This document shows positions 6,482 through 60,062 of a stretch of DNA of 64,000 nt, piece after piece. This stretch comes from a virus. Positions within the stretch are counted from its first letter, which is position 1; each line of letters starts with the position of its first letter. The notes under the pieces are model-generated. The model was not told the origin of the DNA. It was given only the letters and a program-made list of their open reading frames with translations, and searched no databases. A program made the position numbers and the translations under genes. The DNA lies in the IMG/VR virus record IMGVR_UViG_3300010224_000001, positions 224,001 through 288,000 of that record; one strand, 5' to 3'.

Positions 6482-6765
6482 TTCAACACTAAGAAGGAAT
6501 ATGATTTTAGGTTCCAACGCCTTTTGATCAAAATCTTCTTAATGTTGAAACCTGGAGGAAGTTCCATGAATTTAACAGGAGTCTATCTCATGCTATTTTG
6601 TCTCGACTAATAGATACATAGCGTGTACTAAAAGGATCGAATGAGACGCGATAGGACGAGATTGCTTTAGCACTAAGCTAACTTCCAGTGAAAGGAGCTT
6701 CTATTAACCGCTGCTTGGAATCCAACTTTCAGCCAAAAGTTTAAAGGATTACGATTAATAGAAGC
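6482..6765 (-). ncRNA. candidate structured ncRNA (two long helices)
   Basis: 14-bp helix 6697-6710/6752-6765 and about 15-bp helix 6482-6496/6535-6549; no credible ORF. Confidence 0.4.
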
Positions 6766-6771
6766 GTGATC

Positions 6772-7062
6772 TTAAATTGCTAACAGGCTGAGTAATTTAG
6801 CGAGACGATCGTTCACATTGCAAATGCTAGTATCAAGTCGATTGATGCTCTCACCAAGGGGCGAATACATCGGACGATCTTTAGGCTGCTCTGTCGGCGC
6901 ATCTGTAACATAATCACCAGTCAATACTGGAACCAGACGTCTCTCTAAACGACCGATATTCTCCTGGAGAAGAGAAAGCGAATCACGGGCCAATTGCAAA
7001 CAACCATCGACTTCACTAACACGTACGGGTTCATCTAAGGGAATATCTGAAACACAAGCCAT
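6772..7062 (-). CDS. hypothetical coiled-coil protein
   Basis: 96 aa ORF. Confidence 0.6.
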   Translation of the reverse strand: MACVSDIPLDEPVRVSEVDGCLQLARDSLSLLQENIGRLERRLVPVLTGDYVTDAPTEQPKDRPMYSPLGESINRLDTSICNVNDRLAKLLSLLAI

Positions 7063-7092
7063 ATTCTTTTTCTTTCAAGATATTAAGGAAAA

Positions 7093-7168
<76 letters not shown>

Positions 7169-7175
7169 AAAAACT

Positions 7176-7484
7176 TTACCAGCTAATTACAGTGCAGAGA
7201 ATTCGCGGTAAAGTAGGGAAGAAATTATCACGAATTGTTTTCTCTACAAACGACACTTTGAAACCTAAGTCTTCAAGACGCAACTTAATAGCAATCATTG
7301 TCGTAGTTGCTTGAGGTCTTTCTTCCAACCCGCAACGAGTCGCACCAACACCTTCGGATAAGGTGAGTTCGGTCTTACCTTTTGTAGCGCTTTCTTTAAT
7401 CTTAGCTTCAAGATCCATCATGATGACGGTCAGTTGAACTTCAGATGTGTTCGTTAACTCACGAGCTTGTTTAGCGGTGATCAT
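7176..7484 (-). CDS. hypothetical protein
   Basis: 102 aa, MITAKQAREL start common in phage proteins. Confidence 0.65.
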   Translation of the reverse strand: MITAKQARELTNTSEVQLTVIMMDLEAKIKESATKGKTELTLSEGVGATRCGLEERPQATTTMIAIKLRLEDLGFKVSFVEKTIRDNFFPTLPRILCTVISW

Positions 7485-7504
7485 AATAAAGACTCAAGAA
7501 GAGT

Positions 7505-7581
7505 TGGTCTCCCGAACTGGGTTCGAACCAGTGACCCGCATCTTAGAAGGATGCTGCTCTATCCAACTGAGCTATCGGGAG
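7505..7581 (-). tRNA. tRNA-Arg(TCT)
   Basis: GCATC-CTTCTAA-GATGC anticodon arm, full cloverleaf, ACCA. Confidence 0.95.
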
Positions 7582-7589
7582 ACTGATAC

Positions 7590-7796
7590 TTAATAGTTAG
7601 AGAACTCGTTATACCACTTCTTGATAAGCGGCATTGAATCTTTGATCACGACTACAGCTACAAGGATGTTAACCAGCGGGACCAGAGCAATCACTGCTGT
7701 AACAATCAGCTGAAGTTTATTACGACGGTTGTTCCAATCGAGACCCAGCAGAATCAGAGTAACAACCAGGCAGAACCAATAGATAAAGGCAAGCAT
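7590..7796 (-). CDS. small membrane protein
   Basis: two hydrophobic segments, AAGGA SD. Confidence 0.6.
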   Translation of the reverse strand: MLAFIYWFCLVVTLILLGLDWNNRRNKLQLIVTAVIALVPLVNILVAVVVIKDSMPLIKKWYNEFSNY

Positions 7797-7812
7797 GATT
7801 TCCTTAATGTTT

Positions 7813-8007
7813 TTAATAGTATCGTTTGCTAGACTCAGAAAGCTTTTCAAACAGTCGATCAGTGGTTTCTTGAATACTCATGATCCAGTCTAGAGTGGTT
7901 TGCCGATCAGGTAACGGAATACCCGAATCAACCATCTCGTCGTACAGAGGAATTGCTCTAATCAATCGAGCGAGATTCTTTTGTGCTCTTTCTTTCATAG
8001 ACATCAT
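7813..8007 (-). CDS. hypothetical protein
   Basis: short ORF, GAGG SD. Confidence 0.5.
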   Translation of the reverse strand: MMSMKERAQKNLARLIRAIPLYDEMVDSGIPLPDRQTTLDWIMSIQETTDRLFEKLSESSKRYY

Positions 8008-8034
8008 AAGCTTCCTCTGTACGTAAAACACTTC

Positions 8035-8496
8035 TTAAGCTACGAACGAAGAAGCATGCTTGACTGCTTTAACCGCATCTTCATTTTTAAGCTTTGCCAT
8101 ACCAGCTAAGACTTCACCCAGAGCCGGAATGATTTGTGAATTCTTTTCTGCTGCGCGCACCAAGGCTGATGTGATATCGCCAAACTCTAACGTTATCAGA
8201 GCGGAAGTAGCAATATCTTCATCATTGAGTTCTTTGCCAGGTTCCAAAGAACAGGGGATATTGGTGCCACGCGAAGCAATAGTCTTGCCTGAATCGCTCA
8301 AGATATACACGTTGCCATGCATGAGGTATTCTTCAGGATCTTGCTCGGGATTGTGAATGATGCAAACGTCAAGATTATTCTGATTACGTTTAAACTCGAC
8401 TTTGCCACCATCCGGTAAGCTGATCAACTGAAAACCTTTATAAGGGCTCGAATCAGGCAGACTTTCATTCGACATCAACTTTACAAAACCAGCCAT
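8035..8496 (-). CDS. hypothetical protein
   Basis: start at MAGFVK after AGGAG SD. Confidence 0.65.
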   Translation of the reverse strand: MAGFVKLMSNESLPDSSPYKGFQLISLPDGGKVEFKRNQNNLDVCIIHNPEQDPEEYLMHGNVYILSDSGKTIASRGTNIPCSLEPGKELNDEDIATSALITLEFGDITSALVRAAEKNSQIIPALGEVLAGMAKLKNEDAVKAVKHASSFVA

Positions 8497-8577
8497 GTTA
8501 TTTCTCCTAGTACTAGTAAGTGGTATCTCTACCATGGTGATTTTAAATCTGTTCACCAACAGTGCTACAATGAAACT

Positions 8578-8662
8578 TGGTGGGCAGGGTTGGATTTGAA
8601 CCAACGAACCACGAGGGAGATGATTTACAGTCATCCGGGTTTAACCACTTCCCTACCTGCCC
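8578..8662 (-). tRNA. tRNA-Tyr(GTA)
   Basis: GATGA-CTGTAAA-TCATC, long variable arm, ACCA. Confidence 0.95.
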
Positions 8663-8669
8663 GAAACTT

Positions 8670-8867
8670 CTACTTGAATATCGCTGCGATAATCCAAGCT
8701 ACTAACGCAACAGCCAACGCAGGAATCGTCATGAACATTCTGGTTATACCACCACCCCAACGACCGTTTTCTTTAACAGGCCAATAATTCAACCATAAGA
8801 AAGCAATCACAGTTACTGCGGTAGGAATCATCCACCATGAAATCGATAACTCTAAGTGAATGTTCAT
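8670..8867 (-). CDS. small membrane protein
   Basis: 65 aa, two TM-like segments. Confidence 0.6.
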   Translation of the reverse strand: MNIHLELSISWWMIPTAVTVIAFLWLNYWPVKENGRWGGGITRMFMTIPALAVALVAWIIAAIFK

Positions 8868-8915
8868 TTGGTTATTCCCATAATCTTCAGATGTAAGATG
8901 CGTTGCTAGAATTCT

Positions 8916-8992
8916 TGGCTCCCCGACCTGGACTCGAACCAGGGACCTGCGGATTAACAGTCCGTCGCTACTACCAACTTAGCTATCAGGGA
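8916..8992 (-). tRNA. tRNA-Asn(GTT)
   Basis: CGGA-CTGTTAA-TCCG, G73, CCA. Confidence 0.95.
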
Positions 8993-9091
8993 ATACTACG
9001 GTCACATTGCTGTGAGATCTTTACTACAACTACGGGCTACTCATCACTTATGCATTTAGTATGAAGTATCCTTTATTACTGGAGTAACCTC

Positions 9092-9442
9092 ATGCCTGCT
9101 GCAAAGAAAAAAGATGTTTACATTCGCAACGCTAAAGTAATTCGCGTTGTTGACGGAGATACCGCTGAATTTAATGTCGATCTCGGTTGTGATATCCACA
9201 TTAACATGACTTGCCGTTTCAACGGTATTAATGCACCTGAAGTCAGTACTGACGAAGGCAAAGCTTCTAAGGTTTGGCTGCAGAACAAACTTCCACCAGA
9301 ACTGCCTGTTGTCATTCAAACTGTCGCAGATAAGAAAGAGAAGTACGGTCGATATTTAGCCGACGTTTACTTACCTGGCGCATCTACTAGTATCAATGAC
9401 GAGTTGGTGAATGAAGGTCTTGCCAAACCTTACAAACCTTAA
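9092..9442 (+). CDS. thermonuclease (SNase-like)
   Basis: VIRVVDGDT, RFNGINAPE, KYGRYLA, INDELVNEGLA. Confidence 0.9.
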   Translation: MPAAKKKDVYIRNAKVIRVVDGDTAEFNVDLGCDIHINMTCRFNGINAPEVSTDEGKASKVWLQNKLPPELPVVIQTVADKKEKYGRYLADVYLPGASTSINDELVNEGLAKPYKP

Positions 9443-9501
9443 AGCTACTACATCCCTTTAATCCTGACATGACGTTAGGGTTAGAGGGACTTATGACGTA
9501 T

Positions 9502-9591
9502 TGGCGGAAAGCTTGGGATTCGAACCCAAGGATAGATTGCTCCATCGCCGTCTTAGCAGGACGGTGCTTTAGACCACTCAGCCAGCTTTCC
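9502..9591 (-). tRNA. tRNA-Ser(GCT)
   Basis: CCGTC-CTGCTAA-GACGG, long variable arm, GCCA. Confidence 0.95.
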
Positions 9592-9602
9592 ACATTTACT
9601 AC

Positions 9603-9851
9603 TTAACCATGTGCTATTTTGTTCTGATAATCATTAGAGAACACATGCGGTTCACCAATCGATTTACGAGCCTGTTCAATTAGAGCATCTACGTTATCGT
9701 AATCGATGTAGTAGAAGGTTTGACCGTCTTTAACGCGATGTCGTGGCAACTTCTCTAAGTCTTTACAGAGTTTAATCAACGCGTCTTTAGCTGTAGTATC
9801 TGTAATTGGGAATTGGCCTTCCCCTGCAAAACTATCATTACTGAAACACAT
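9603..9851 (-). CDS. hypothetical protein
   Basis: start at MCFSND after GGAG SD. Confidence 0.55.
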   Translation of the reverse strand: MCFSNDSFAGEGQFPITDTTAKDALIKLCKDLEKLPRHRVKDGQTFYYIDYDNVDALIEQARKSIGEPHVFSNDYQNKIAHG

Positions 9852-9870
9852 GACTTCTCCGTAAAGTGTT

Positions 9871-10008
9871 TGGTCGGGCGTTCTTGGAATCGAACCAAGG
9901 ACCTTCGTCTTGTGGTGAGGTTCCCCTCTGGCCGATCGCCTAAGCGGTCGCATCCGCCGAAGCGAATGGAATATTGGACGATGCTCTACCGAACTGAGCT
10001 AAACCCCG
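9871..10008 (-). ncRNA. tRNA-scaffold RNA 1 (67-nt three-hairpin cargo in anticodon loop)
   Basis: acceptor CGGGGTT/AAC(G)CCCG, D arm GCTC/GAGC, stem TCGTC/GACGA around 9910-9976, T arm, ACCA. Confidence 0.85.
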
Positions 10009-10016
10009 TAAGTCTT

Positions 10017-10691
10017 TCAACCTTTTGCTACTAGTGTAAACTCAACAGGTTTGCCATCTGGTAAGAATACACTCTCAGCGTAGGTGAACATGTAAAACTT
10101 GTCAGCAGGATCCCATTTCTCATCATCCATTTTGTACATTGCAAACACTAACTCGTGAGTAATGTGTAAACAACGATTGGCTAACTTGGAGAACTCAGCA
10201 CTGACAATGATGTTACCGTAGGAGTAAGTAGTACCTTTATCCCACGAGAACGACATTGGCTTTTCTGGAGCATAACTCCATTTATCACCAGGCTTGGCTT
10301 TCTTGTATCGTTCAGTTATACCAGCGTCTTGCTGACCTGGATTAATTTTGAAACCACGATACAGCAATGGATGATTCGGAGGACGTTGAATCGATTCAAA
10401 GACTTTTTTAGCTTCTCGAAGTTTATCTAAGAGACTGTAATCAGTAACAGACACCCACTGATCAACAGCTTGAAGAAGTTCTTTGTGCTGCAACATCTTT
10501 TCAACGATCTTCATGTCTACATCTTCTTTCTGGAATGCCAGTTGAGGCGTGTATCCAAAAAGTTTTATTAAGCGCATCAGAATTTTCTTCTTCCACTCAG
10601 CTTCTTTGTAGACTTCGTTGAAGTTTGCTTCTTTCTCTAGACTGACAGAATTATCTGTAATCCAGTCTATATAAACAGGTTTAGTCGTCAT
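10017..10691 (-). CDS. putative ADP-ribosyltransferase-fold protein
   Basis: R-S-E type signature: LLYRG, MSFSW, YAESV. Confidence 0.45.
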   Translation of the reverse strand: MTTKPVYIDWITDNSVSLEKEANFNEVYKEAEWKKKILMRLIKLFGYTPQLAFQKEDVDMKIVEKMLQHKELLQAVDQWVSVTDYSLLDKLREAKKVFESIQRPPNHPLLYRGFKINPGQQDAGITERYKKAKPGDKWSYAPEKPMSFSWDKGTTYSYGNIIVSAEFSKLANRCLHITHELVFAMYKMDDEKWDPADKFYMFTYAESVFLPDGKPVEFTLVAKG

Positions 10692-10752
10692 GGTTTACCG
10701 TTACAAATGAGGGTGATAATCATAGTAATTGGTGAGACTAAACCTGTTGAAT

Positions 10753-10917
10753 TGGTGGGACGTTCCTAGATTTGAACTAGGGACCTCGATCTAGTTTAGA
10801 TGGAACCTGATTAGGGTTCTGCCTTTAACCACTCGGCCATACCTCCTAACGGAGATAGAGGGATTCGAACCCTCGGATCTTTGGTTGATCGCGCTCTAAC
10901 CGCTGAGCTAAACTCCC
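10753..10917 (-). ncRNA. tRNA-scaffold RNA 2 (permuted Ser-like tRNA nested via its variable arm)
   Basis: outer GGGAGTT/AAC(G)TCCC-ACCA; insert 10792-10886 has T arm, GTTA-closed acceptor, D arm, anticodon arm. Confidence 0.9.
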
Positions 10918-10938
10918 GGATACTTCTACTACAATGTT

Positions 10939-11110
10939 TGGTGGAGCGATGCAAGATTCGAACTTGCGACCTCTGTCTAAGCTTTGACTAGCAGGATTGT
11001 GCTCTAACCATCTGAGCTACTAACGGACGTTGACACCCGTTAGATCGGACTTGAACCGATGACCCCAATCGTGAATAAGACAGCGTTCTACCTGACTGAA
11101 CTAATCCCCC
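10939..11110 (-). ncRNA. tRNA-scaffold RNA 3 (permuted tRNA nested anticodon-to-anticodon)
   Basis: outer GGGGGAT/ATC(G)CTCC-ACCA; insert 10978-11078 has T arm, closed acceptor CTAACGG/CCGTTAG, D arm. Confidence 0.9.
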
Positions 11111-11128
11111 ATGTACTACTTTGAAACT

Positions 11129-11288
11129 TGGTGGAGCGATCTAGGAATCGAACCTAGGACCTCTGCCTGAGTCGAATGCTCTACCAGCTGAGCTACCGAT
11201 AAGTAACGAAGTGTTACCTACCGAGCGGGACTCGAACCCGCGACCCGTCGATTAGAATGGCAGCGCTCTATCACTGAGCTAATCCCCC
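11129..11288 (-). ncRNA. tRNA-scaffold RNA 4 (permuted tRNA nested anticodon-to-anticodon)
   Basis: outer GGGGGAT/ATC(G)CTCC-ACCA; insert 11168-11258 has T arm, 12-bp closed acceptor, D arm. Confidence 0.9.
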
Positions 11289-11307
11289 GCAAACTGCTTT
11301 GTGAAAC

Positions 11308-11437
11308 TGGTAGGGCGCTTCTGGATTTTAACCAGAGACCTCCGTCTAGTTAACCAATAACCACACCCCCGTTGGGAGGTACGGCTGGACTTGAACCAGC
11401 GATTTGACGGCGCTCTAACAGGCTGAGCTAAGCCCCT
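11308..11437 (-). ncRNA. tRNA-scaffold RNA 5 (minimal T-acceptor-D module nested)
   Basis: outer AGGGGCT/AGC(G)CCCT-ACCA; insert 11347-11405. Confidence 0.85.
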
Positions 11438-11446
11438 AATGAAACT

Positions 11447-11617
11447 TTACTTAAGAACACACATTAAAGTGATGCTCTGCTTTTTATCACTGTTAGCAAT
11501 CTTCGCATTCTTAGTAGCTTCGATGCATTGCTCCCAGCTTTGCATCGGAAACTCTTTCTGATCTATACTCCAACCATCGGAATGGATCCAGATAAGAAAT
11601 ACTGCTAATGCCTTCAT
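11447..11617 (-). CDS. small hypothetical protein (56 aa)
   Basis: MKALAVFLIWIH...WEQCIEA...LMCVLK read by hand; not in the supplied ORF track. Confidence 0.5.
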   Translation of the reverse strand: MKALAVFLIWIHSDGWSIDQKEFPMQSWEQCIEATKNAKIANSDKKQSITLMCVLK

Positions 11618-11638
11618 GTCAATGATCTTTCTATTCGT

Positions 11639-11894
11639 TAGTGGAGAGATTGCGGGAGTTCAACCCGCGACTTTGATGGAACCCTAAAGCTGCAGCACTT
11701 GGTTTAGTTAAAGGTGAGTTACGATAATTTACCGCACTTGACCACCCAAAGCTTATGCATAAAACCCAAACTGTAAGAAAACCATGAAAGAAAACTTACA
11801 GAGGTTTTATAGAAGGTAACCTACAAACTTTAGAAGTATAATCTGCACCGAAGCCTTCCGCCAAGAAGGAGTCTTGCTTCTCGACTATCTCTCC
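11639..11894 (-). ncRNA. 256-nt tRNA-like RNA with 183-nt variable arm
   Basis: GGAGAGA/TCTCTCC-ACTA, D arm GTC/GAC, CCTTC/GAAGG arm, T arm GCGGG-TTGAACT-CCCGC. Confidence 0.75.
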
Positions 11895-11912
11895 CAAGAG
11901 AACTTAATCTCT

Positions 11913-11940
11913 TGCACATTATGGGAAGTACGTGTAATTT
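11913..11940 (-). promoter_or_regulatory. putative promoter of the tRNA-like RNA cluster
   Basis: AAATTAC-N9-CCATAATGTGCA; TTAC-N9-CCATAATGTGCA recurs at 33166-33190. Confidence 0.55.
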
Positions 11941-11947
11941 TTTACTT

Positions 11948-12403
11948 TTAGACAACTATTTGACCGATAGCGATCCGTTGCTTGGTCTTAGCTAAACGAG
12001 GTCCAAAGTGGTTGAGCCATTTTACAGTAGCTATGCGAAGGTGACGTGTTCGGCATTCTTCGTTATACTCACCTTTAAAAGCTGCTTCTTGGTAAGTATT
12101 ACGAATAGTCCAAACGTTGTGTTTCCACACCTCCACAGTAAAGCTACCGAGCTGACTTAACTCAAGAGCAAGTTCATACGAGCACTCGAAAGCAATATAG
12201 AAACCGTAAGGATGACCTTCACAAGAGAAACGGGTTTTAGCACCGAGTTCTTCTAGTGCCAAGATGAAGAAATTCACACCTGGTTCCAGCGTTGAAACTG
12301 GATATGTAATCTCTACACTTTCAAAGCCGCGCTCAAGCTTAAGTTTACAAGCTTGATCCCAGGGATGTTCTGACATAATCGCCGGACCATTAATGAATGA
12401 CAT
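11948..12403 (-). CDS. hypothetical protein with TYW3-like T..SC.GH motif
   Basis: LEPGVNFFILALEELGAKTRFSCEGH. Confidence 0.45.
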   Translation of the reverse strand: MSFINGPAIMSEHPWDQACKLKLERGFESVEITYPVSTLEPGVNFFILALEELGAKTRFSCEGHPYGFYIAFECSYELALELSQLGSFTVEVWKHNVWTIRNTYQEAAFKGEYNEECRTRHLRIATVKWLNHFGPRLAKTKQRIAIGQIVV

Positions 12404-12816
12404 TATTTCACCTTGACTTTATCGAAACACTCATGAAGATCCTGGGAAGAACGACCACTTTCCCAATCGATGATAAGCCAGCGTTCACCATTACGATGTT
12501 CTCGGATATATTTCTCCACTACTTTACCAGGCGTATTGATCGCGGAGATAAGTTCCAGACCTTCGCAGATTTTTTCATACGGCATCTGGGACAATGGTTT
12601 GCCTGAATAGTCGGTTGTTTCAACCACGACGATATCTGCGCAATCGCCTTCGTTATGGCGTGTCCACTTACCGTTATCCCAATCTACGTGAATCTCTTTA
12701 GCTTGAGTAGTAAAGCGAACAATGCCTTCTTCTTTCTCTGCATTGGCTACTCGTAAATCGGTCGTGATTTGAGCGATAGGGATTTCCGACAATTTCTTAC
12801 CTACAAGTTGTTCCAT
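12403..12816 (-). CDS. hypothetical protein
   Basis: 137 aa ORF. Confidence 0.6.
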   Translation of the reverse strand: MEQLVGKKLSEIPIAQITTDLRVANAEKEEGIVRFTTQAKEIHVDWDNGKWTRHNEGDCADIVVVETTDYSGKPLSQMPYEKICEGLELISAINTPGKVVEKYIREHRNGERWLIIDWESGRSSQDLHECFDKVKVK

Positions 12817-19494: not shown

Positions 19495-20079
19495 TTACTT
19501 GTGGTTACGAGCAATACCAAAATCAGCTGCTTTGAGTTTCACCATACGACCATCAGGATGATACCAGACGACACCTTCGATGTTCGTCTTGCTGAAGTAT
19601 TCCTTCAGTTCGTCAAACGTACGTGGGCAGTCTTCCATAATGTCTTGACCGTGCGGGATAAGAATGTGCTTTTGCAAATTCTCAGGATTCGGGCCATGGC
19701 GAGTACCAACTTTGGGTCCGCACACTTCATACGTACCGTCAGGTGGCATTGAACCCTTAACCCAATTACCCTCAGTAAGAGCGACAGCTTCCCATACATG
19801 TTTAAGTGTAGGAGAAGCGGGTACCCAACCAGGCCAGTGTCCAGTTTGCGGATCTGGTTCAGGTTGAGCAGGGATAAAGTCTGTCGGCGGTATACGGCCT
19901 GTCTTAGCATCGTAACGCACATACACCTTGAGTGACTGAATAAGCACAGCTAAGCCATCCCATTTACGAGTAGCGTAGCCAACACCATTCAACACCCATT
20001 CCGAACCTGGAACGGCCTCGTTACGGACTTGACGATCACCATCATAGTTACGTTGAAACAAAGACTGAATCTTTTTCAT
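19495..20079 (-). CDS. ATP-dependent RNA ligase, DUF5565/RLIG1-like
   Basis: motif I ATRKWDG, motif III TYEVCG, motif IV EGVVW, motif V VKLK. Confidence 0.7.
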   Translation of the reverse strand: MKKIQSLFQRNYDGDRQVRNEAVPGSEWVLNGVGYATRKWDGLAVLIQSLKVYVRYDAKTGRIPPTDFIPAQPEPDPQTGHWPGWVPASPTLKHVWEAVALTEGNWVKGSMPPDGTYEVCGPKVGTRHGPNPENLQKHILIPHGQDIMEDCPRTFDELKEYFSKTNIEGVVWYHPDGRMVKLKAADFGIARNHK

Positions 20080-20221
20080 GCTTTTCTTCCTATTGGATGT
20101 TGGTAAGTTTCGAATCCCGCCCCCATCCATAACCTTTCCTATCTGAGTATTTTTTTGATTATTTGCAACAAATAAAAATACGTCATAAAAGAGAGAGCTT
20201 TCGCTCTCTCCCAGATACTAC

Positions 20222-28815: not shown

Positions 28816-28903
28816 TGGTAGACCGAGCGGGCTTTGAACCCGCAGTGGAGTTTCCTCGCTGAATTATGAGTTCAGTGCCTGCGACCAGTACGGCTTCCGG
28901 TCC
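28816..28903 (-). tRNA. tRNA with CAT anticodon (Met/Ile2) on a long-variable-arm body
   Basis: CTGAA-CTCATAA-TTCAG, V arm GAG-GAAA-CTC, ACCA. Confidence 0.85.
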
Positions 28904-40736: not shown

Positions 40737-42437
40737 TTACATAAAGCCGCTATCTACACGTTTGGTGACCTTCAGGATATTCACCAAGGTGTATTTGAAA
40801 CGAACGCCACACAACTCAACTGCACGGTTTAACGCCGTTACGAATTCAGGACGAAGAGAGATGCGCTCGCTGATTTCGTAAAGAGAAAGCTTACCCGGCA
40901 CTGTCATATGTTTCATAGCCAGCGCAGTATAGATCTCCATACGCTTTTCAACGATGCTGTTGATATCAACACCCATGTGGTTAGTAGCTTTATAGCCAGA
41001 GGGAGCTGTAAACATGCCGTTAATACCTTCGTCATTATGGACCTTACCCGTCGGAGAATGGCTATTGATGTACTCGTCCATTTCCTTGGAATCCATACTC
41101 GAACTAGCATTCAAGAAATGGAAGTTCCGCAAGTCCTGCACGCCGACGTTAGTAATAACATCGCCAATGGTAACTACTTCATTGGTGTGATAAATTACAC
41201 TCTCAGGCGCTAAGGAATTGTCATTGAAGTACCGGTCAAAACCGCCGTTCGTGAAATTGTTGATGATGGTTCGCATTTCACGATGTGCTCCTTCGCTACC
41301 ATTTTTTAGTGCCGCCAACATCCCCAGCAGATCTTCCGACGAACTTGCCAATGATGGGTAGTCGAAGGAAACGATTGCATTCTCATGACATGCCTTACGC
41401 ATGAATTCAAGCACATTGTTTTCATCAACTTGCTCGAACTCCTTGCTGATCCGTTTGTTACCCCCCAAAAGTTTATTAACGCAGAGAATGCCATCCGAGT
41501 CTTTAAGGTTAGTGAAACCGTTAACCCAAATATACTCGTTATTGATCTTCTGCACCGAAGCCAAAATGGTAAGAAGGACTTCGTTATCAGAACCTTCAGT
41601 GCTTACCGCGGTTACGATAAAGCGAGGAATATACTTCTTAACTTCATCCTTCCCATCCCAGACCAAATCGAAATAACCATACGCAGTACCGAGTGGCGAG
41701 TTGGAGTTGTACACCGGATGATTGATTTGAGCACTTACTTCGTAAAGACTGATTTTAACATCAGCCCGGACCGGCGAACCGTAGTAGTTGTGGATCTTTT
41801 CTTGACAGTTAAAATCGATCTCCACATCAAAACGGCTATTTCTCGAAACCTCGGCCAGATTGAAAGGAACGAATTCCTTGTCATTGCGACTCATGCCGGT
41901 GGAGATCTCAGAGAGTGCTTTATTGCAAAGCGCCATTACGGTTTCAGAATTGCAGAAATCAACTTCCCAGGGAATGTAAGTTTCACCGCAGTGGATAGCA
42001 GGAGCACTTTCCTTTTCAAGTAACTCATTACGAATATACTGATTGATATCAACCATGAATTCACGATGAATAAGGTCGACAGCTTGCCGCGAAACCAGCG
42101 GCTTCTGGGTTCTGTTGAACAAGGTCGCGCCGTTTGGCGCCTGAGCCGGAAGATGAATGATGTGGTAGAAAAGCTGCCCGCTATCCTGCGGACGAACTGT
42201 CATCAGAATTGCGGTGAAGACGCCATCGTTTTTGTAATCGAAAGGGAAGGCACCGACGGACACATTCGACATCATGCTCTCTGCTTCGCTAGCGAACGCA
42301 TCCAGTTTGGTTTTGAATTCCGTCAGGAGACTGTTGCTAGACTTCGGACCGAAAGCGTGGCGTTTGAATAAATCTTTGAAATGATTACGCGGTTCTTGTT
42401 GGTTTTGATAGCCTTGCTGTTGTTTGCTGTTTTCCAT
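40737..42437 (-). CDS. chimallin (phage nucleus shell)-like protein, probably a divergent paralog
   Basis: GSPVRAD, GYFDLVW, YIPRFIVT, DLRNFHFLN, RISLRPEFVTAL match ChmA motifs as recalled. Confidence 0.6.
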   Translation of the reverse strand: MENSKQQQGYQNQQEPRNHFKDLFKRHAFGPKSSNSLLTEFKTKLDAFASEAESMMSNVSVGAFPFDYKNDGVFTAILMTVRPQDSGQLFYHIIHLPAQAPNGATLFNRTQKPLVSRQAVDLIHREFMVDINQYIRNELLEKESAPAIHCGETYIPWEVDFCNSETVMALCNKALSEISTGMSRNDKEFVPFNLAEVSRNSRFDVEIDFNCQEKIHNYYGSPVRADVKISLYEVSAQINHPVYNSNSPLGTAYGYFDLVWDGKDEVKKYIPRFIVTAVSTEGSDNEVLLTILASVQKINNEYIWVNGFTNLKDSDGILCVNKLLGGNKRISKEFEQVDENNVLEFMRKACHENAIVSFDYPSLASSSEDLLGMLAALKNGSEGAHREMRTIINNFTNGGFDRYFNDNSLAPESVIYHTNEVVTIGDVITNVGVQDLRNFHFLNASSSMDSKEMDEYINSHSPTGKVHNDEGINGMFTAPSGYKATNHMGVDINSIVEKRMEIYTALAMKHMTVPGKLSLYEISERISLRPEFVTALNRAVELCGVRFKYTLVNILKVTKRVDSGFM

Positions 42438-52429: not shown

Positions 52430-53335
52430 TTAAAATTCGATTTCTTCTTCCAGGATACGACGGACTTCCATCCAGACTTTACCCATGCGGTTTTCACCTT
52501 GCCATTTATCAGGATCGTGAATACGTTCATCATCCTTAGCAATGCCAACACCCCATTTGGTATCACTCTTACTGGCTTCAACTAAAAGCTTACCTTTAGT
52601 CGCCATTAAGTATTCGTAAACGTCTTTGTGTTCCCTAGCTTTTTGTAAACAAGCTTTGACGAGTAAAGCATCGGCTCTCTCATTCCATAAAGCGTCATTG
52701 TAAGGAGTTACTAGACGACCTAACTCTTTACATTTTGCTGGATCTTTCTCTTGCAGAATTAATGCGGCATTGACGTCATCTTTCATCAGCTTGGCTTTAC
52801 AGTACATCATGAAGCATTCGACTGTATGAAAGTAAACATCTTTTAACGTAAAACCACGACCGTTCCAATTCGAGAGTAAATCTTCTTTACCATGGAAAGC
52901 TACGACTTCTTTCTTACGACGTGGAACAGTGTGTTTGGGAAATGGGACTTTCCCATTAGGACGAGTTAACTCACCCACTATAACAACAGTATGTCCTTCT
53001 GATTCTAGATAATCCTTGGCTTTATAAATGAACATATGCCGGTGGCAGTATTCTCCCTTACGGCAGTAGCAAGCAAACGCTACCCGAGTATGTTCTTTCA
53101 GCATCTGCCAAATATGACCAGCTTCTGCACGCGAACGTTGCATCCGTTCGTTATAGATTGCTGTATATTGAGTCTGCGTTAATTCGCCATCTTTATAACG
53201 CATGACGTCAGACATCTTCGGAGAGAAAGCTTTCACTCCAGATGCGGCAGTAATATCTAGAAGCTCTACATTGGATTCTCTGGCAATCCGCCATTGTGCT
53301 AATTGAATCGTGTAGAGGTAATAAACTTGTCCCAT
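52430..53335 (-). CDS. DUF488-like domain fused to NADAR (YbiA) domain
   Basis: CYC...CHR; LSNW, KELGR, LVEAS..D.KWGVG, GENRMGK. Confidence 0.85.
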   Translation of the reverse strand: MGQVYYLYTIQLAQWRIARESNVELLDITAASGVKAFSPKMSDVMRYKDGELTQTQYTAIYNERMQRSRAEAGHIWQMLKEHTRVAFACYCRKGEYCHRHMFIYKAKDYLESEGHTVVIVGELTRPNGKVPFPKHTVPRRKKEVVAFHGKEDLLSNWNGRGFTLKDVYFHTVECFMMYCKAKLMKDDVNAALILQEKDPAKCKELGRLVTPYNDALWNERADALLVKACLQKAREHKDVYEYLMATKGKLLVEASKSDTKWGVGIAKDDERIHDPDKWQGENRMGKVWMEVRRILEEEIEF

Positions 53336-57431: not shown

Positions 57432-58901
57432 TTAGTCAATACCTTCAAGAGCACGAACGCAAACGTCCTCTTCGAATTTCTGACGCCATTCACGACGACC
57501 TTCGTTCAACCACAGGCGGTGTCCCGGACCTGGAGTAAAGAACGAATACAAGCTGTTCTCGTTAATAGCATCATACACTTCGAGGTTACCGTTTTCATCT
57601 TCACGGCAACGCACCAGACCCGACAAGGATTTCTTACCAAGATCGGATTTCGGCTCTTTCAGAACACGTTTCCAGCCGCCGTCACGGAACTCAGCAATAA
57701 CCTTCATGCTGAAGCTAAACCAGTCGCGGCTACCATCGTTAGCGATACCGCCACCGCAACCCAACAGGAAATTGTCAACGCACCAGCCTTTATCGACAGC
57801 ACCTTTAATGACAGACTCGAACGACTCTACGTTGATACCGTCACCATACAGCGCGCCAACGGCCCACGGCAGATTACGATAACCAGCGTCATTCGGAGTC
57901 GAACCAAAAGTCTCTTCCAGCCAGCCTAACACTTGCGCCAGCTTAGTAGTTGGGTCACCTGAGTCAGGACGAGTCACAAGGCGAGCACCGCAGTTAAGGA
58001 TTTCGTCCTTGAACTTCGGAATGAACTCCCTTACGAAACGTTCATCATCGTAGGTATCAGGAACAGCAGAAGCCACAGGAATACCAATACCGGCTTTGGC
58101 ACGAGCCGCCACACGGTGCAGAAGTTCCATAACCATCTGCATAGCACCGAAGTCATCTTTTGCTTCAGCATTAGAATTCAAGCACATGGTGGTGTGCTCG
58201 GTAGCTACAACAGAACTAGTGCGAGGTTTACCGGTGTTGTAGAGACGCTTAATGTACCCATTAGCGCGTCCACAATCGCTACCTTTGAAGATTGCCGCGT
58301 GCGCCATGCCTTTGAGAACAGGTGTTTCGTCCGGAGAATCTGCACCACGATCACCAAAGAAGTGTACGAAGTAATCAAGCATGGCCATGTTACCGCCAGT
58401 CATCTTGAAATACTTAGCAGCCACTTTACGCATATAGCGGCAAATCGAAGCAGTCGTCGACATCGACCAGACCGTCGATTGAATCACTGGCTCAAAATAC
58501 GGAACCAGCCATTTGACTTGTTCGTCTTCATGAGTAACAAGAAGAATCGGTGTTTGTGGTTTAACGATACGACCTTCTTCCACACCAAAGAAAGTAAGGG
58601 GAATGCGACCACCGTAAACACGGAGGATGTATTCCCAACCTTCACGGTTGAAAGTATAACCTTGCTCAGTGACTTCAACTTCTGCTTCGTCAATCATCCA
58701 CTGCTCGAGTCGCGCCGTAGCAAACACATGCGAAATAAAGGTTTGACCCATTGCGACGATTTCATCAGTAAACCACGTTTTCTTACGCGGCACTACTGCT
58801 GATACCAGTCGCTTAGATTTCTTAGGCATCTGATAGACGTGGTCGAACTTGTAGGTGTCACACCAGAGGATGATATTGAAAGGTTTAATAAGTTCTAACA
58901 T
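57432..58901 (-). CDS. nadV: nicotinamide phosphoribosyltransferase
   Basis: DTYK..H, FGDRG, ATEH, RPDSGDP, GDGI, K.SLSG. Confidence 0.9.
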   Translation of the reverse strand: MLELIKPFNIILWCDTYKFDHVYQMPKKSKRLVSAVVPRKKTWFTDEIVAMGQTFISHVFATARLEQWMIDEAEVEVTEQGYTFNREGWEYILRVYGGRIPLTFFGVEEGRIVKPQTPILLVTHEDEQVKWLVPYFEPVIQSTVWSMSTTASICRYMRKVAAKYFKMTGGNMAMLDYFVHFFGDRGADSPDETPVLKGMAHAAIFKGSDCGRANGYIKRLYNTGKPRTSSVVATEHTTMCLNSNAEAKDDFGAMQMVMELLHRVAARAKAGIGIPVASAVPDTYDDERFVREFIPKFKDEILNCGARLVTRPDSGDPTTKLAQVLGWLEETFGSTPNDAGYRNLPWAVGALYGDGINVESFESVIKGAVDKGWCVDNFLLGCGGGIANDGSRDWFSFSMKVIAEFRDGGWKRVLKEPKSDLGKKSLSGLVRCREDENGNLEVYDAINENSLYSFFTPGPGHRLWLNEGRREWRQKFEEDVCVRALEGID

Positions 58902-58967: not shown

Positions 58968-60062
58968 TTAGACGAAGTACTCAACCATATCTGGATGGTC
59001 GTCGTACATAATCTCTTTAGCGCTCAGGATGTGGCCAGTCGGAATCCAATCCACGCCGTTATTTGGCAGCCAAGTTGCTTTCGCATCATCGCCACCTTTA
59101 GCACGAGGCGGATTACCATGATCATCACGCGGTTCCAACTTGAAGTAGAAACCATGAGTGACACGAGGGATACCGTTATTGCGCGCTGGGTGATCAAACA
59201 CATGTTGCTTACGCAGAGCAAGCCGCAGCGTTTTCTCAGATACACGCAAATTGGTTTCTTCGTAGATTTCCTTAATCACTGAATCAAACAGCGACAAGTT
59301 TCTCTCTTTGAAACCACCTGGTAATGCACGGCAACCATAACCAGGACCATGTTCATTTGCACGAGTCACAGTCAGGATATGTCCAGCACACTCAATAATC
59401 GCATCCACACAAATGAAGCTGAGCGTATCCTGGTAGGGATAGTCTTTGAACTTCTCTGTCTCGCTAAGGTAATAGCGATAATCACGCTGTGCGTTCGTAT
59501 CGAACTCACGGTGTTCCAGGAAGATCTTCATCTGCGGTGGCAGGTGTTGATCTAAGAGTATACTGTTGCCAAGCTTTTGCTCGTTAGCGAACCACTCATC
59601 GCGCAGACGAGTAGCGTCGATATCAACCTGAACACCCAAATCACGACGTTTCCATTGCGGGAACTTCTTGAGATAGTAAGTAGTCTGATCTTTATCTTGA
59701 CCGTACAGCGTTACGTTAGAATCATGAATACCGTTAGGTACTGCAAATTCATACACGTGTCGCTGTACCTCTGACTCCCAACGTGCTTCCTTGTAAAGAT
59801 TATCAAACAGAGGCACAATCGAATAGTTACTCGTGAAAGTCGCGAGCACATGTTCGAGCACACGTTTACGTTCGATAAAATCAAAAGGATTCTTGTTGGA
59901 CTTACGACGGTTCGCAGATCCAATCAGAATAAGCAAGTGGGTATTCTCTTTTGCCATTTCTTTGAGCATGCGAACATGTTCATTGTGCAGCATAGAGAAA
60001 CGAGCAATTACCACAGCTAAAGTTTTACCACTAAAGTTTTGACTGCTAGTTACAATTTGCAT
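58968..60062 (-). CDS. bifunctional NMN adenylyltransferase / Nudix hydrolase (NadM-Nudix, NatV-like)
   Basis: ARF..LHNEH, IGSAN, NPF, ALPGGF, E..EET, GGDDA, DDH. Confidence 0.9.
   Translation of the reverse strand: MQIVTSSQNFSGKTLAVVIARFSMLHNEHVRMLKEMAKENTHLLILIGSANRRKSNKNPFDFIERKRVLEHVLATFTSNYSIVPLFDNLYKEARWESEVQRHVYEFAVPNGIHDSNVTLYGQDKDQTTYYLKKFPQWKRRDLGVQVDIDATRLRDEWFANEQKLGNSILLDQHLPPQMKIFLEHREFDTNAQRDYRYYLSETEKFKDYPYQDTLSFICVDAIIECAGHILTVTRANEHGPGYGCRALPGGFKERNLSLFDSVIKEIYEETNLRVSEKTLRLALRKQHVFDHPARNNGIPRVTHGFYFKLEPRDDHGNPPRAKGGDDAKATWLPNNGVDWIPTGHILSAKEIMYDDHPDMVEYFV

Follow-up and report, generated by a model that had tools for sequence, protein, structure and literature searches.

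Layout of the unit

Clusters of tRNA genes in phages are usually read as aids to codon usage or as spares against tRNA-cleaving defences. The question raised by unit S4 in the tRNA cluster of a giant soil phage is whether a tRNA body held within the anticodon loop of a second tRNA-like RNA is released by splicing or is kept in place, in which case S4 would stand for a phage making non-decoding RNAs from tRNA parts. All coordinates below refer to the window, i.e. the whole stretch of 64,000 nt that was analysed, and the unit is read on the minus strand. S4 (11288–11129, minus strand; about 160 nt) is one RNA with two tRNA-shaped modules, which are joined through their anticodon stems; between these stems, 7 nt (ATTCTAA) face 4 nt (CTCA) in an internal loop. 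The insert (11258–11168, minus strand) fills exactly the gap between the outer anticodon-stem strands CTGCC and GGCAG. From 5′ to 3′ the features are as follows:

11282–11288, minus strand: outer acceptor 5′ strand, GGGGGAT; 7/7 pairs with 11133–11140, the fourth nucleotide (G) of the latter being bulged
11265–11279, minus strand: outer D arm, GCTC-AGTGATA-GAGC; stem 4/4, D loop without GG pair
11259–11263, minus strand: outer anticodon stem 5′ strand, CTGCC; 5/5 pairs with 11163–11167
11252–11258, minus strand: 5′ linker, ATTCTAA; ATTC at 11258–11255, TAA at 11254–11252, the TAA completing the inner CAT loop
11247–11251, minus strand: inner anticodon stem 3′ strand, TCGAC, tRNA positions 39–43; 4/5 pairs with 11172–11176
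11225–11246, minus strand: inner variable loop, GGGTC, and T arm, GCGGG-TTCGAGT-CCCGC
11196–11224, minus strand: inner acceptor in a 12-bp hairpin; 7-bp acceptor with three G-U pairs, 5-bp extension, loop ACTTC
11177–11195, minus strand: inner U8-A9, canonical D arm, GCTC-AGCTGGTA-GAGC, and A26
11172–11176, minus strand: inner anticodon stem 5′ strand, TTCGA, positions 27–31
11168–11171, minus strand: 3′ linker, CTCA, inner positions 32–35
11163–11167, minus strand: outer anticodon stem 3′ strand, GGCAG, pairing with CTGCC
11141–11162, minus strand: outer variable loop, AGGTC, and T arm, CTAGG-TTCGATT-CCTAG
11129–11140, minus strand: outer acceptor 3′ strand, ATC(G)CTCC, then encoded ACCA

In the outer shell, the 7-bp acceptor includes G3:U70 besides the bulged G, and its ACCA end is encoded. 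The 5′ strand of this acceptor is identical in the paralogue S3, and the outer anticodon stem of S3 (CTGTC/GACAG) shows a compensated change with respect to that of S4. The outer D arm is similar to the D arm of the phage's own tRNA-Arg(tct), with a gap of 2 nt.

The inner module has all the parts of a tRNA body in a circular permutation whose break lies within the anticodon between positions 35 and 36: the anticodon-stem 3′ strand comes first, followed by variable loop, T arm, sealed acceptor, canonical D arm and, finally, the anticodon-stem 5′ strand. Its variable loop and T arm are identical to those of the phage's own tRNA-Thr(tgt) in 19 of 21 positions, and the segment 11177–11195 together with the inner stem 5′ strand in 22 of 24, the D arm itself being identical. 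The inner acceptor is characterized by U1-G72, three G-U among its 7 pairs and G at position 73, and is closed by an extension of 5 bp that is perfectly palindromic, so that the closure looks built to stay closed. When the insert was permuted by script, ARAGORN called a tRNA-Met(cat) of 76 nt, and the rejoined sequence forms a full cloverleaf. The inner elbow looks canonical and the outer one degenerate, since the outer D loop lacks GG and the strain differences described below all lie in the outer T loop.

The eight helices are intact in S4 (41/42 pairs) as well as in S3 and in L117u, a nested unit from another virus (42/42 each). Two tandem cloverleaves were ruled out, because the acceptor and anticodon strands pair in a nested manner only.

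Origin of the inner anticodon arm

As pointed out in the preliminary description, the insert starts with ATTC-TAA-TCGAC and ends with TTCGA (11176–11172) plus CTCA (11171–11168) on the minus strand, and joining CTCA to TAA indeed gives CTCATAA, a loop of the CAT type. Of the 805 tRNAs (650 anticodon arms) that ARAGORN called in the phage and in 119 viral loci and that served as a library, 72 are CAT, and 59 of these have the same loop. The joined inner arm of 17 nt has two mismatches to the nearest of these 650 arms, and both nearest arms are CAT; an equal closeness was reached by 2 of 2000 controls with random loops and the inner stem kept, and by 9 of 2000 fully random arms.

The likeness extends to individual genes. 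A 15-mer ending in CTCA gave at least 120 matches in bacterial genome contigs; among the matches listed, nine lie in tRNA genes, all nine CAT, seven of them having the insert start as the next 8 nt and seven of the nine sharing the T27/C43 mismatch with the inner arm. The corresponding 16-mer was found in 20 stretches of viral contigs, which include 14 ARAGORN tRNAs, all CAT and 12 of them with the same 8 nt. Taken together, among the matches listed, the bacterial and viral tRNA genes with the 15- or 16-mer are CAT in 23 of 23 cases and carry the 8 nt of the insert start in 19, and CTCA is followed by T in all 23. Over its whole length, one of the 23 genes shares 86–88% identity with genes of E. 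coli that are annotated as tRNA-Ile. Read across the insert ends, the inner arm equals the arm of Ile2-type tRNA(CAU) genes, those of the lysidine tRNA (ileX-like), letter for letter.

As the inner anticodon arm is identical to the arms of real CAT tRNA genes, the inner body most probably descended, as judged from its sequence, from a tRNA(CAU) of the Ile2 type that had been opened between 35 and 36. The earlier suggestion of descent from a tRNA(CAU) split within its anticodon is thus supported both by the identity of the arm and by its being closer to real arms than the controls are. The origin of S4 would then be datable: an Ile2-type tRNA would have been cut open in its anticodon and inserted, with its halves in reversed order, in a second tRNA. 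Like the Ile2-type tRNAs(CAU), the inner module has the 17-nt arm including the T27/C43 mismatch, and 48–54 of 58 body positions are identical; unlike them, it is permuted in order, opened at 35|36 and devoid of free acceptor ends, and its acceptor (TTATCGG/TCGGTAG) is unrelated, the 23 real CAT genes among the matches listed having mostly G-C-rich acceptor stems. With the loop excluded, the best library matches of the inner body are Thr, Lys and Val tRNAs, with no CAT-specific likeness outside the arm, and the proximity of the inner D and T arms to the phage's own tRNA-Thr counts against a CAT-specific body.

The loop alone is a different matter. All five possible 7-nt joins of the linkers beside the inner stem satisfy U33/R37 and four of the five are real library loops, so CTCATAA by itself is weak evidence, and the weight lies on the identity of the arm taken as a whole. 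The TAA may alternatively be the end of the outer loop ATTCTAA, in which case the CAT loop would be partly coincidental: the TAA would be a remnant of the outer loop, the inner body would have lost positions 36–38 with its arm still being CAT-derived, the permutation would only look exact, and the CTCA|TAA join would be meaningless. U36-A37-A38 is in fact the commonest loop end (A37 in 699 and A38 in 615 of the 805 tRNAs), and TTCTAA occupies positions 33–38 in 51 of 55 UCU loops. Against this stands the recurrence of ATTC in the 5′ linkers of the paralogues S1 and S3 with other letters after it, which fits a boundary between ATTC and TAA; furthermore, C43 after TCGA matches the real arms as well (19/23 among the matches listed) and the whole outer arm is not above chance. 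Such a partial coincidence is rated as rather unlikely.

Proposed splicing and circularization, and phage enzymes

The preliminary description also proposed that excision plus ligation makes a circular tRNA. In this scheme cuts at ATTC|TAA and CTCA|GGCAG would free the inner body, an RtcB-type ligase would join A35 to U36 to form a circle with a CUCAUAA loop, and a shell with a 4-nt loop would be left; an opening of the acceptor as in Cyanidioschyzon merolae (RNase P, 3′ trimming and CCA addition) could linearize the circle. The permutation is exact, no nucleotide being missing or extra at 35|36, rejoining yields an arm of the real Ile2 type, and the red-alga permuted tRNA genes do mature through circles (PMC4090602). 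The ligases invoked do exist in the phage: apart from RtcB (432–433 bits; G000 191211–192338), its genes include one for a CCA-adding enzyme (74.9 bits), one of the Thg1 type (93.9 bits) and one for a KxDG protein:

19495–20130, minus strand: KxDG protein of 211 aa with an RKWDG motif and a partial match to RLIG1 (PF17720, formerly DUF5565)

This is the ligase named in the preliminary description; its RLIG1 match (30.8 bits, cut-off 25) covers only profile positions 214–271 of 324 and 54 residues.

The bulge-helix-bulge motif consists of a 4-bp helix flanked by two 3-nt bulges, as given in PMC4090602; on inspection of the sequence, the S4 linkers form no such motif, the 7 nt lying directly opposite the 4 nt and CTCA having no complement in ATTCTAA. 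No match to the splicing endonuclease family tRNA_int_endo (PF01974) was found in the 100%-complete phage record, the same search being positive in four archaeal control genomes. Bacteria are not known to have a tRNA splicing endonuclease. Since the inner acceptor is sealed in the 12-bp hairpin, with three G-U pairs and G73, an excised circle would probably not be chargeable; even the opened form with its U1-G72, three G-U and G73 would presumably, by the identity rules of these enzymes, be a poor substrate for IleRS or MetRS. The phage was searched for TilS, which would be needed to mature a CAU Ile2 anticodon, and none was found. Moreover, S3 and L117u, which share the design, yield no 7-nt loop when their whole linkers (8+17 nt and 4+7 nt, respectively) are joined. 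Contigs of four DNA runs contained no joint deleting the insert, a result that applies at the strain level; DNA contigs cannot show RNA processing. With the motif and the endonuclease gene missing and the acceptor sealed, the circular tRNA is unsupported and considered highly improbable. Were S4 spliced, protein-dependent tRNA splicing and circular RNA formation would extend to bacterial viruses; in the improbable event that the circle is freed by cleavage and ligated by RtcB, bacterial viruses would have their first case of a tRNA intron or circle spliced by proteins.

The permuted tRNA genes of the red alga C. merolae mature via a circular intermediate (Soma et al. 2007, as described in PMC4090602). 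As in the inner module of S4, their 3′ half precedes the 5′ half and a short intervening sequence links the acceptor ends, and their permutation points include the anticodon loop (37/38, as compared with 35|36 in S4). These genes stand alone with bulge-helix-bulge ends cut by the splicing endonuclease, whereas the S4 body is nested, without motif or enzyme, and its acceptor is sealed by 12 bp. With archaeal and animal tRNA introns and the circles made from them (tricRNAs; PMC4536317) S4 shares an insert in the anticodon-loop region of a tRNA-like gene, and RtcB, which circularizes introns of this kind, is also encoded by the phage; unlike those systems, S4 has no bulge-helix-bulge and no EndA/TSEN, is bacterial-viral and has an insert that is itself a tRNA body.

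Removal of the inner body in favour of the outer tRNA was weighed as well. The earlier statement that the outer shell would be left with a 4-nt loop, and hence with no normal tRNA, holds under the cut proposed there; it fails under another, since ARAGORN with introns allowed (-i) calls a tRNA-Arg(tct) i(37,84). S4 would then be an intron-bearing gene for a tRNA-Arg(UCU)-like product with the loop AUUCUAA, the 84-nt inner body being an intron at 37/38. The 5′ half and the linker resemble the phage's own tRNA-Arg(tct), through GATAGAGC (D arm) and TTCTAA (loop). Against this, ATTCTAA is the loop of none of the 805 library tRNAs and A32 occurs in only 7, and the outer arm is no nearer to real arms than are 442 of 2000 random-loop controls. 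The missing G18-G19 in the D loop, the bulged G and G3:U70 in the acceptor and the strain-variable T loop speak against a working tRNA, and a normal tRNA-Arg(tct) is already present in the phage (7505–7581). Apart from the absent splicing endonuclease, no group I intron family occurs among the 28 Rfam matches with E up to 10 in 6500–12500, the insert being 84–91 nt long. The reading is considered extremely improbable. The intron-bearing calls of ARAGORN -i (Arg, Asn and Val) were rejected as real genes; those on the neighbours of S4, read as Asn(att) and Val(cac), are equally arbitrary. Without introns allowed there is no ARAGORN call on S4, which has no closed 7-nt anticodon loop; the nested design explains why tRNA finders miss such genes or give spurious intron-bearing calls.

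Relatives and strain variation

The tRNA cluster of the phage holds four more RNAs with a cargo in the anticodon loop, five in all, and scaffold RNAs built in the same way are also present in G001 and G003, two related jumbo phages. A generic nested-tRNA pattern was found in at least 119 stretches of viral contigs; 32 matches were flagged, of which one (L117) is truly nested, and the others were discarded as ordinary tandem tRNAs or single tRNA calls. The nested unit in question, L117u, has the design of S4 and S3 with a different sequence and lies on an unrelated viral contig of 74 kb.

No orthologue of S4 was found among GenBank phages, in pattern searches of viral, bacterial and metagenome contigs, or in the related jumbo phages. 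Specifically, blastn of 10700–11480 against GenBank phages gave no match; the acceptor/T-arm pattern gave none in viral contigs, and neither the pattern of both acceptor strands nor that of both D arms occurred in metagenome contigs. Neither the 224-aa neighbour nor the chimallin-like protein led directly to related loci, and tblastn of the latter returned remote matches only (19–27% identity). The 224-aa protein has 21 homologues (36–91% identity), of which P0001 at 91% and P0002 at 73% are close; the alignment of these proteins led to four viral loci from three jumbo phages where synteny with the tRNA cluster is lost. The whole records of these three phages contain scaffold RNAs but no S4-like unit. 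No tRNA-in-tRNA of a phage is described in the literature searched; the YrlA tables supplementing PMC4201824 may list similar RNAs.

The absence of an orthologue would agree with S4 being non-functional debris of a recent recombination between neighbouring tRNA genes, unused by the phage, as would the unchanged Ile2 arm, which is expected of a young event. Debris would hardly be expected to retain 41 of 42 helix pairs and an acceptor closed by a perfect, engineered-looking hairpin, and the five RNAs of the same design in one cluster, with more in related phages, also argue against it. In addition, contigs from two other metagenome runs cover S4: one of 256 nt spans the whole unit with three letters changed, all in the outer T loop (11147, 11149 and 11150), and one of 151 nt contains part of it unchanged. 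The remaining matching pieces from the four DNA runs are short tRNA-like matches of other organisms. On balance, mere debris seems quite unlikely.

Fold and tRNA-model scores

The minimum-free-energy fold of S4 recovers seven of the eight helices. With a pair probability of about 0.71, an alternative 5-bp stem, GGGUC/GACUC, is thermodynamically favoured; the tRNA-like inner stem of 4 bp reaches about 0.16. The stability of S4 is not above that of shuffles (z = −1.26; 23 of 200 shuffles equally stable). The alternative stem and the shuffle-level stability count against reading S4 as a two-module mimic. The Rfam tRNA model (RF00005) gives two partial matches to model positions 8–63 (26.7 and 23.8 bits, cut-off 29), each of which couples the D arm of one module to the T arm of the other. 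A tmRNA or permuted tmRNA was dismissed, the scores of 12.9–15 bits being noise. The scan of 9400–12400 revealed no sigma-70 promoter or terminator above shuffles.

Comparison with other tRNA-like RNAs

A related design is that of YrlA, the tRNA-like Y RNA of bacteria and phages (RF02553; Chen et al. 2014, PMC4201824). Both have a permuted T arm, a loop-closed acceptor-like stem and a D arm (in S4, those of the inner module), a canonical elbow, no anticodon loop and a tRNA-like module borne on another helix, and both occur in phages and in an RNA-repair context with RtcB. With the YrlA model S4 reaches 32.6 bits, below the gathering score of 69, and only model positions 27–81 are matched (11178–11245). 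Unlike YrlA, its 160 nt contain no Ro-binding motif of the form GNCGAAN0-1G (PMC4201824), its ends form a tRNA acceptor stem, and the carrier is a whole second tRNA-like shell in place of the Ro-binding stem. Dimeric tRNAs can score as YrlA false positives, as is stated in PMC4201824, where RNase P is also reported to cut the YrlA of M. smegmatis at its closed acceptor. A Ro60 partner was rejected, since the complete record of 322,570 bp has no TROVE (PF05731) match, the control search being positive in two genomes.

In engineered tRNA scaffolds (Ponchon and Dardel; PMC3753655) a cargo RNA replaces the anticodon loop and the shell serves processing and stability. The five RNAs of the cluster likewise carry different cargoes in one type of shell; unlike the engineered constructs, S4 is natural, is encoded by a phage and carries a second tRNA body as cargo.

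Probable role of S4

The evidence as a whole makes it probable that S4 is an uncut, two-headed tRNA mimic, non-decoding and related in design to YrlA, and that its CAT loop is not a splice junction. The S4 RNA would be released from the cluster transcript at its outer ends in a tRNA-like manner and would remain in one piece. Decoding would not be expected, because neither module has a closed anticodon loop. The working surface may be the intact inner elbow with its D and T loops, which the conserved Ile2-type stem and the split loop may extend. Such an RNA might act as a mimic of, or decoy for, a host or phage tRNA-binding factor, candidate targets being modification enzymes, defence nucleases that cleave tRNA and the phage repair enzymes. 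For a mimic of this kind, the CAT loop would be either an evolutionary scar or a split recognition surface. It should be mentioned that a pathway rejoining the loop would likewise be compatible with an exact permutation without loss and with an Ile2 arm left unchanged while the acceptor next to it has diverged fully; RtcB, the CCA-adding enzyme and Thg1 are present in the phage.

A more specific version, in which the cargo is a "pre-opened" tRNA-Ile2, appears unlikely. The cargo would display the elbow, the Ile2-type stem and both halves of the CAU loop with the backbone broken at 35|36 and tied to the shell, and would be a decoy that is not consumable, since its binding by TilS or by a defence nuclease of anticodon loops would lead to no productive modification or cleavage. 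Should the split loop have a function, S4 would represent a new mode of RNA substrate mimicry in which the mimic is not consumed.

The use of ATA by the phage, 281 of the 4632 Ile codons in 190 long ORFs, argues neither way.

Structure of the nested unit S4

The nested unit S4 runs from 11288 to 11129 on the minus strand (160 nt, encoded ACCA included) and consists of a tRNA-like outer shell carrying a permuted inner tRNA body, the cargo, in place of its anticodon loop. The segment 11258-11168 is exactly what the two strands of the outer anticodon stem, CTGCC and GGCAG, enclose (minus strand). It begins ATTC-TAA-TCGAC and ends TTCGA-CTCA, and CTCATAA results when CTCA is joined to TAA; the insert ends and rebuilt loop of the preliminary description were thus confirmed on the minus-strand sequence. 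Index-based dissection yielded eight helices.

Helices of S4 (all minus strand)
Outer acceptor: 7/7 pairs, one bulged G
Outer D stem: 4/4 pairs
Outer anticodon stem: 5/5 pairs
Inner anticodon stem: 4/5 pairs
Inner T stem: 5/5 pairs
Inner acceptor: 7/7 pairs, three of them G-U
Inner D stem: 4/4 pairs
Outer T stem: 5/5 pairs

The inner acceptor is extended by five extra pairs and closed by a 5-nt loop, and the inner body therefore has no free ends. An internal loop of 7 nt versus 4 nt separates the two facing anticodon stems. An arrangement as tandem cloverleaves was rejected, the strands pairing in the nested way only. The minimum free energy fold recovered everything except the short inner anticodon stem; nearest-neighbour folding, which takes no account of tRNA tertiary structure, favoured the pairing GGGUC/GACUC (p ~0.71) over that stem (0.16), with an energy gap of 0.5 kcal/mol. 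The stability of the whole fold is not unusual (z = -1.26). The inner elbow is canonical. The outer elbow is, as judged from sequence, degenerate: GG is missing from its D loop, and a 256-nt contig of a different metagenome run, which spans the whole of S4, shows only three differences, all in the outer T loop (window 11147, 11149 and 11150; TTCGATT to TTTAACT on the RNA strand), with loss of the outer-elbow C56.

Origin of the inner body

By itself the rebuilt loop is weak evidence, while the whole arm is strong evidence. The S4 linkers look loop-like in several registers: U33 and R37 hold in all five seven-nt joins beside the inner stem, four of which are loops of real tRNAs. In the paralogue S3, two of eight possible joins give real loops, of Glu or Asp type; its 3' linker begins CTGCTA, which are also the six opening letters of the GCU-type loop in the tRNA-Ser(gct) that the phage itself encodes.

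Comparison was made with a library of 805 ARAGORN-called tRNAs from the phage and 119 viral loci (650 distinct arms), in which CTCATAA is the loop of 59 of the 72 CAT tRNAs. Two distinct arms, both CAT, are the closest to the joined 17-nt arm, at two mismatches each; equally close to real arms were 2 of 2000 controls with the stem kept and a random loop, and 9 of 2000 fully random ones. Databases were searched with a contiguous window piece ending in CTCA, which is blind to the letters that follow. A 15-mer of this kind had at least 120 matches in genome_contigs; among the matches listed, 111 lay outside tRNA genes and nine inside, all nine genes carrying a CAT anticodon and seven continuing with the insert's opening eight letters, the C of the T27/C43 mismatch included. 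The 16-mer found 20 stretches in viral_contigs, none of them in a nested arrangement: 14 ARAGORN tRNAs, all CAT and 12 with the same eight letters, one further stretch at a locus edge also with these letters, and five non-tRNA stretches. Whole-arm identity and the exact matches in CAT genes therefore provide good support for the first alternative of the preliminary description, that a tRNA(CAU) opened inside the anticodon would be the ancestor of the inner body. One bacterial CAT gene shares 86-88% identity across its whole length with E. coli genes annotated as tRNA-Ile, which marks the arm-sharing CAT genes as putatively of the Ile2 (lysidine) type; CAT tRNA-Ile genes are presumably of the ileX type. 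Outside the arm the inner body is not CAT-specific, its best library matches with the loop excluded being Thr, Lys and Val, and its D and T arms are nearest to those of the phage's own tRNA-Thr(tgt) (22/24 and 19/21).

The TAA might instead be the tail of an outer loop, ATTCTAA, which agrees in its final six letters with the consensus of UCU loops (51/55). However, ATTCTAA is absent from all 805 library loops, and 442 of 2000 controls come at least as near to real arms as the outer arm does. Furthermore, ATTC occurs in the 5' linkers of the scaffolds S1 (9976-9969) and S3 (11078-11071) as well as S4 (11258-11252), offset from the outer stem by 4, 2 and 0 nt, respectively, and in S1 and S3 other letters follow it, which places the boundary between shell and cargo where it had originally been set, between ATTC and TAA. 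In all five scaffolds of the cluster, A is the final linker nucleotide ahead of the 3' strand of the outer stem.

Comparable units

The same eight helices are perfect (42/42 pairs) in S3 (10943-11110) and in a nested tRNA-in-tRNA at 7682-7828 of IMGVR_UViG_3300026430_000073 (L117), an unrelated 74 kb viral contig. Both differ from S4 in their stem sequences, and their linkers measure 8+17 nt (S3) and 4+7 nt (L117). Just upstream of the L117 unit, at 7525-7671, lies a second unit made up of a T arm, a hairpin that is closed, and a D arm resembling class II, and three more 'intron' tRNA calls lie at 8133-9226.

The cargoes of the five cluster scaffolds are hairpins, a class II cloverleaf, permuted tRNA bodies or a bare elbow. 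Three more scaffold RNAs, whose cargoes are one elbow and two hairpins, occur in two jumbo phages sharing a neighbour protein, G001 and G003.

Scaffold units in the related phages
L133 (G001:136970-140098), ~272-405 and ~432-575 of the 651-nt stretch L133 1331-1981, minus strand: two units of G001
L131 (G003:130442-133523), ~443-540 of L131 1259-1959, minus strand: unit of G003

A bulge in the acceptor 3' strand is present in all five window scaffolds and both G001 units, where it is T or A instead of G; the G003 acceptor pairs 7/7 without it. S4 belongs to a set of cargo-in-anticodon-loop RNAs, and no S4-like unit was found in G001 or G003. In G002, a lone tRNA 3' half (anticodon-stem 3' strand, variable loop, T arm, acceptor 3' strand and GCCA) stands between two normal tRNA genes (L132, G002:214800-217882; ~189-254 of plus-strand L132 1301-1901).

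Splicing or circularisation

Excision of the inner body and its ligation to a circle, the second alternative of the preliminary description, fared poorly. Protein-dependent tRNA splicing requires a bulge-helix-bulge, a 4-bp helix between two 3-nt bulges, according to PMC4090602, whereas the S4 linkers lie directly opposite each other and are not complementary. The complete phage record gave no tRNA_int_endo match in a search in which four archaeal control genomes were positive, no group I intron model matched, and TilS is absent from the phage. The inner acceptor is sealed by a perfectly palindromic extension and, if opened, would present U1-G72, three G-U pairs and G73; moreover, no loop is rebuilt in S3 or the L117 unit. 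Since the permutation is exact and the RNA end-repair kit of the phage is full, excision is kept as a live but unlikely rival.

RNA end-repair proteins of the phage record
RtcB: 433 bits
211-aa KxDG protein: RLIG1 (former DUF5565) match, profile positions 214-271 only, 30.8 bits
Thg1-like enzyme: 93.9 bits
CCA-adding enzyme: 74.9 bits

The ARAGORN reading, an intron-bearing tRNA-Arg, is a second rival and likewise unlikely. The CTCA-TAA join appears to record real ancestry; it does not speak for splicing.

Proposed nature of S4

On the features described, S4 is most likely an uncut, non-decoding two-headed tRNA mimic, and it may act as a decoy. Its outer shell would provide stability and processing of the ends as in a tRNA, while the cargo would contribute a tRNA elbow and an anticodon stem of Ile2 type whose loop is split. 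Among described RNAs, YrlA comes closest: its tRNA-like domain is permuted like the S4 cargo (T arm / closed stem / D arm; PMC4201824). However, membership was rejected, as S4 scores 32.6 against the 69 bits needed, the Ro-binding motif is absent, and the phage has no Ro60. In the literature searched, no phage tRNA nested within another tRNA was described. New for S4 is the identification of the donor tRNA type and the exact break point.

Phage and cluster setting

The phage record (322,570 bp, direct terminal repeats, rated 100% complete), of which the window covers bases 224001-288000, has no close relative among GenBank phages. A 566-aa protein (window 40737-42437) scores 26.8 bits against the Pfam cut-off of 27 for the phiKZ-type chimallin family and matches annotated nuclear shell proteins remotely in tblastn (~20% identity); on this basis the phage is probably a distant member of the nucleus-forming jumbo phages. 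Every gene discussed is on the minus strand. ARAGORN calls nine ordinary tRNAs in the window. In addition, 9871-11437 holds five tRNA-like genes that it either misses altogether or calls only with introns allowed; S4 is the fourth of these. The phage's only ARAGORN-called tRNA-Met(cat) (window 28816-28903) has 88 nt and a long extra arm, unusual in a CAT tRNA.

A sigma-70 promoter scan of the cluster gave nothing above shuffles. A loosely conserved element, AAGTAGTA / TTGTAGTAG / CCGTAGTAT, sits 3-12 nt upstream of most genes for tRNAs and scaffolds (for example window 8993-9003, 9592-9606, 10918-10932 and 11111-11125) and may be a phage promoter or processing signal; similar GTAGTA strings lie ahead of tRNA-like genes in G001-G003. 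The genes for a NADAR-domain protein (window 52430-53335), a nicotinamide phosphoribosyltransferase (57432-58901) and a cytidylyltransferase-NUDIX fusion (58968-60062) look like an NAD-salvage set, presumably of the kind used by phages against NAD-depleting defences.
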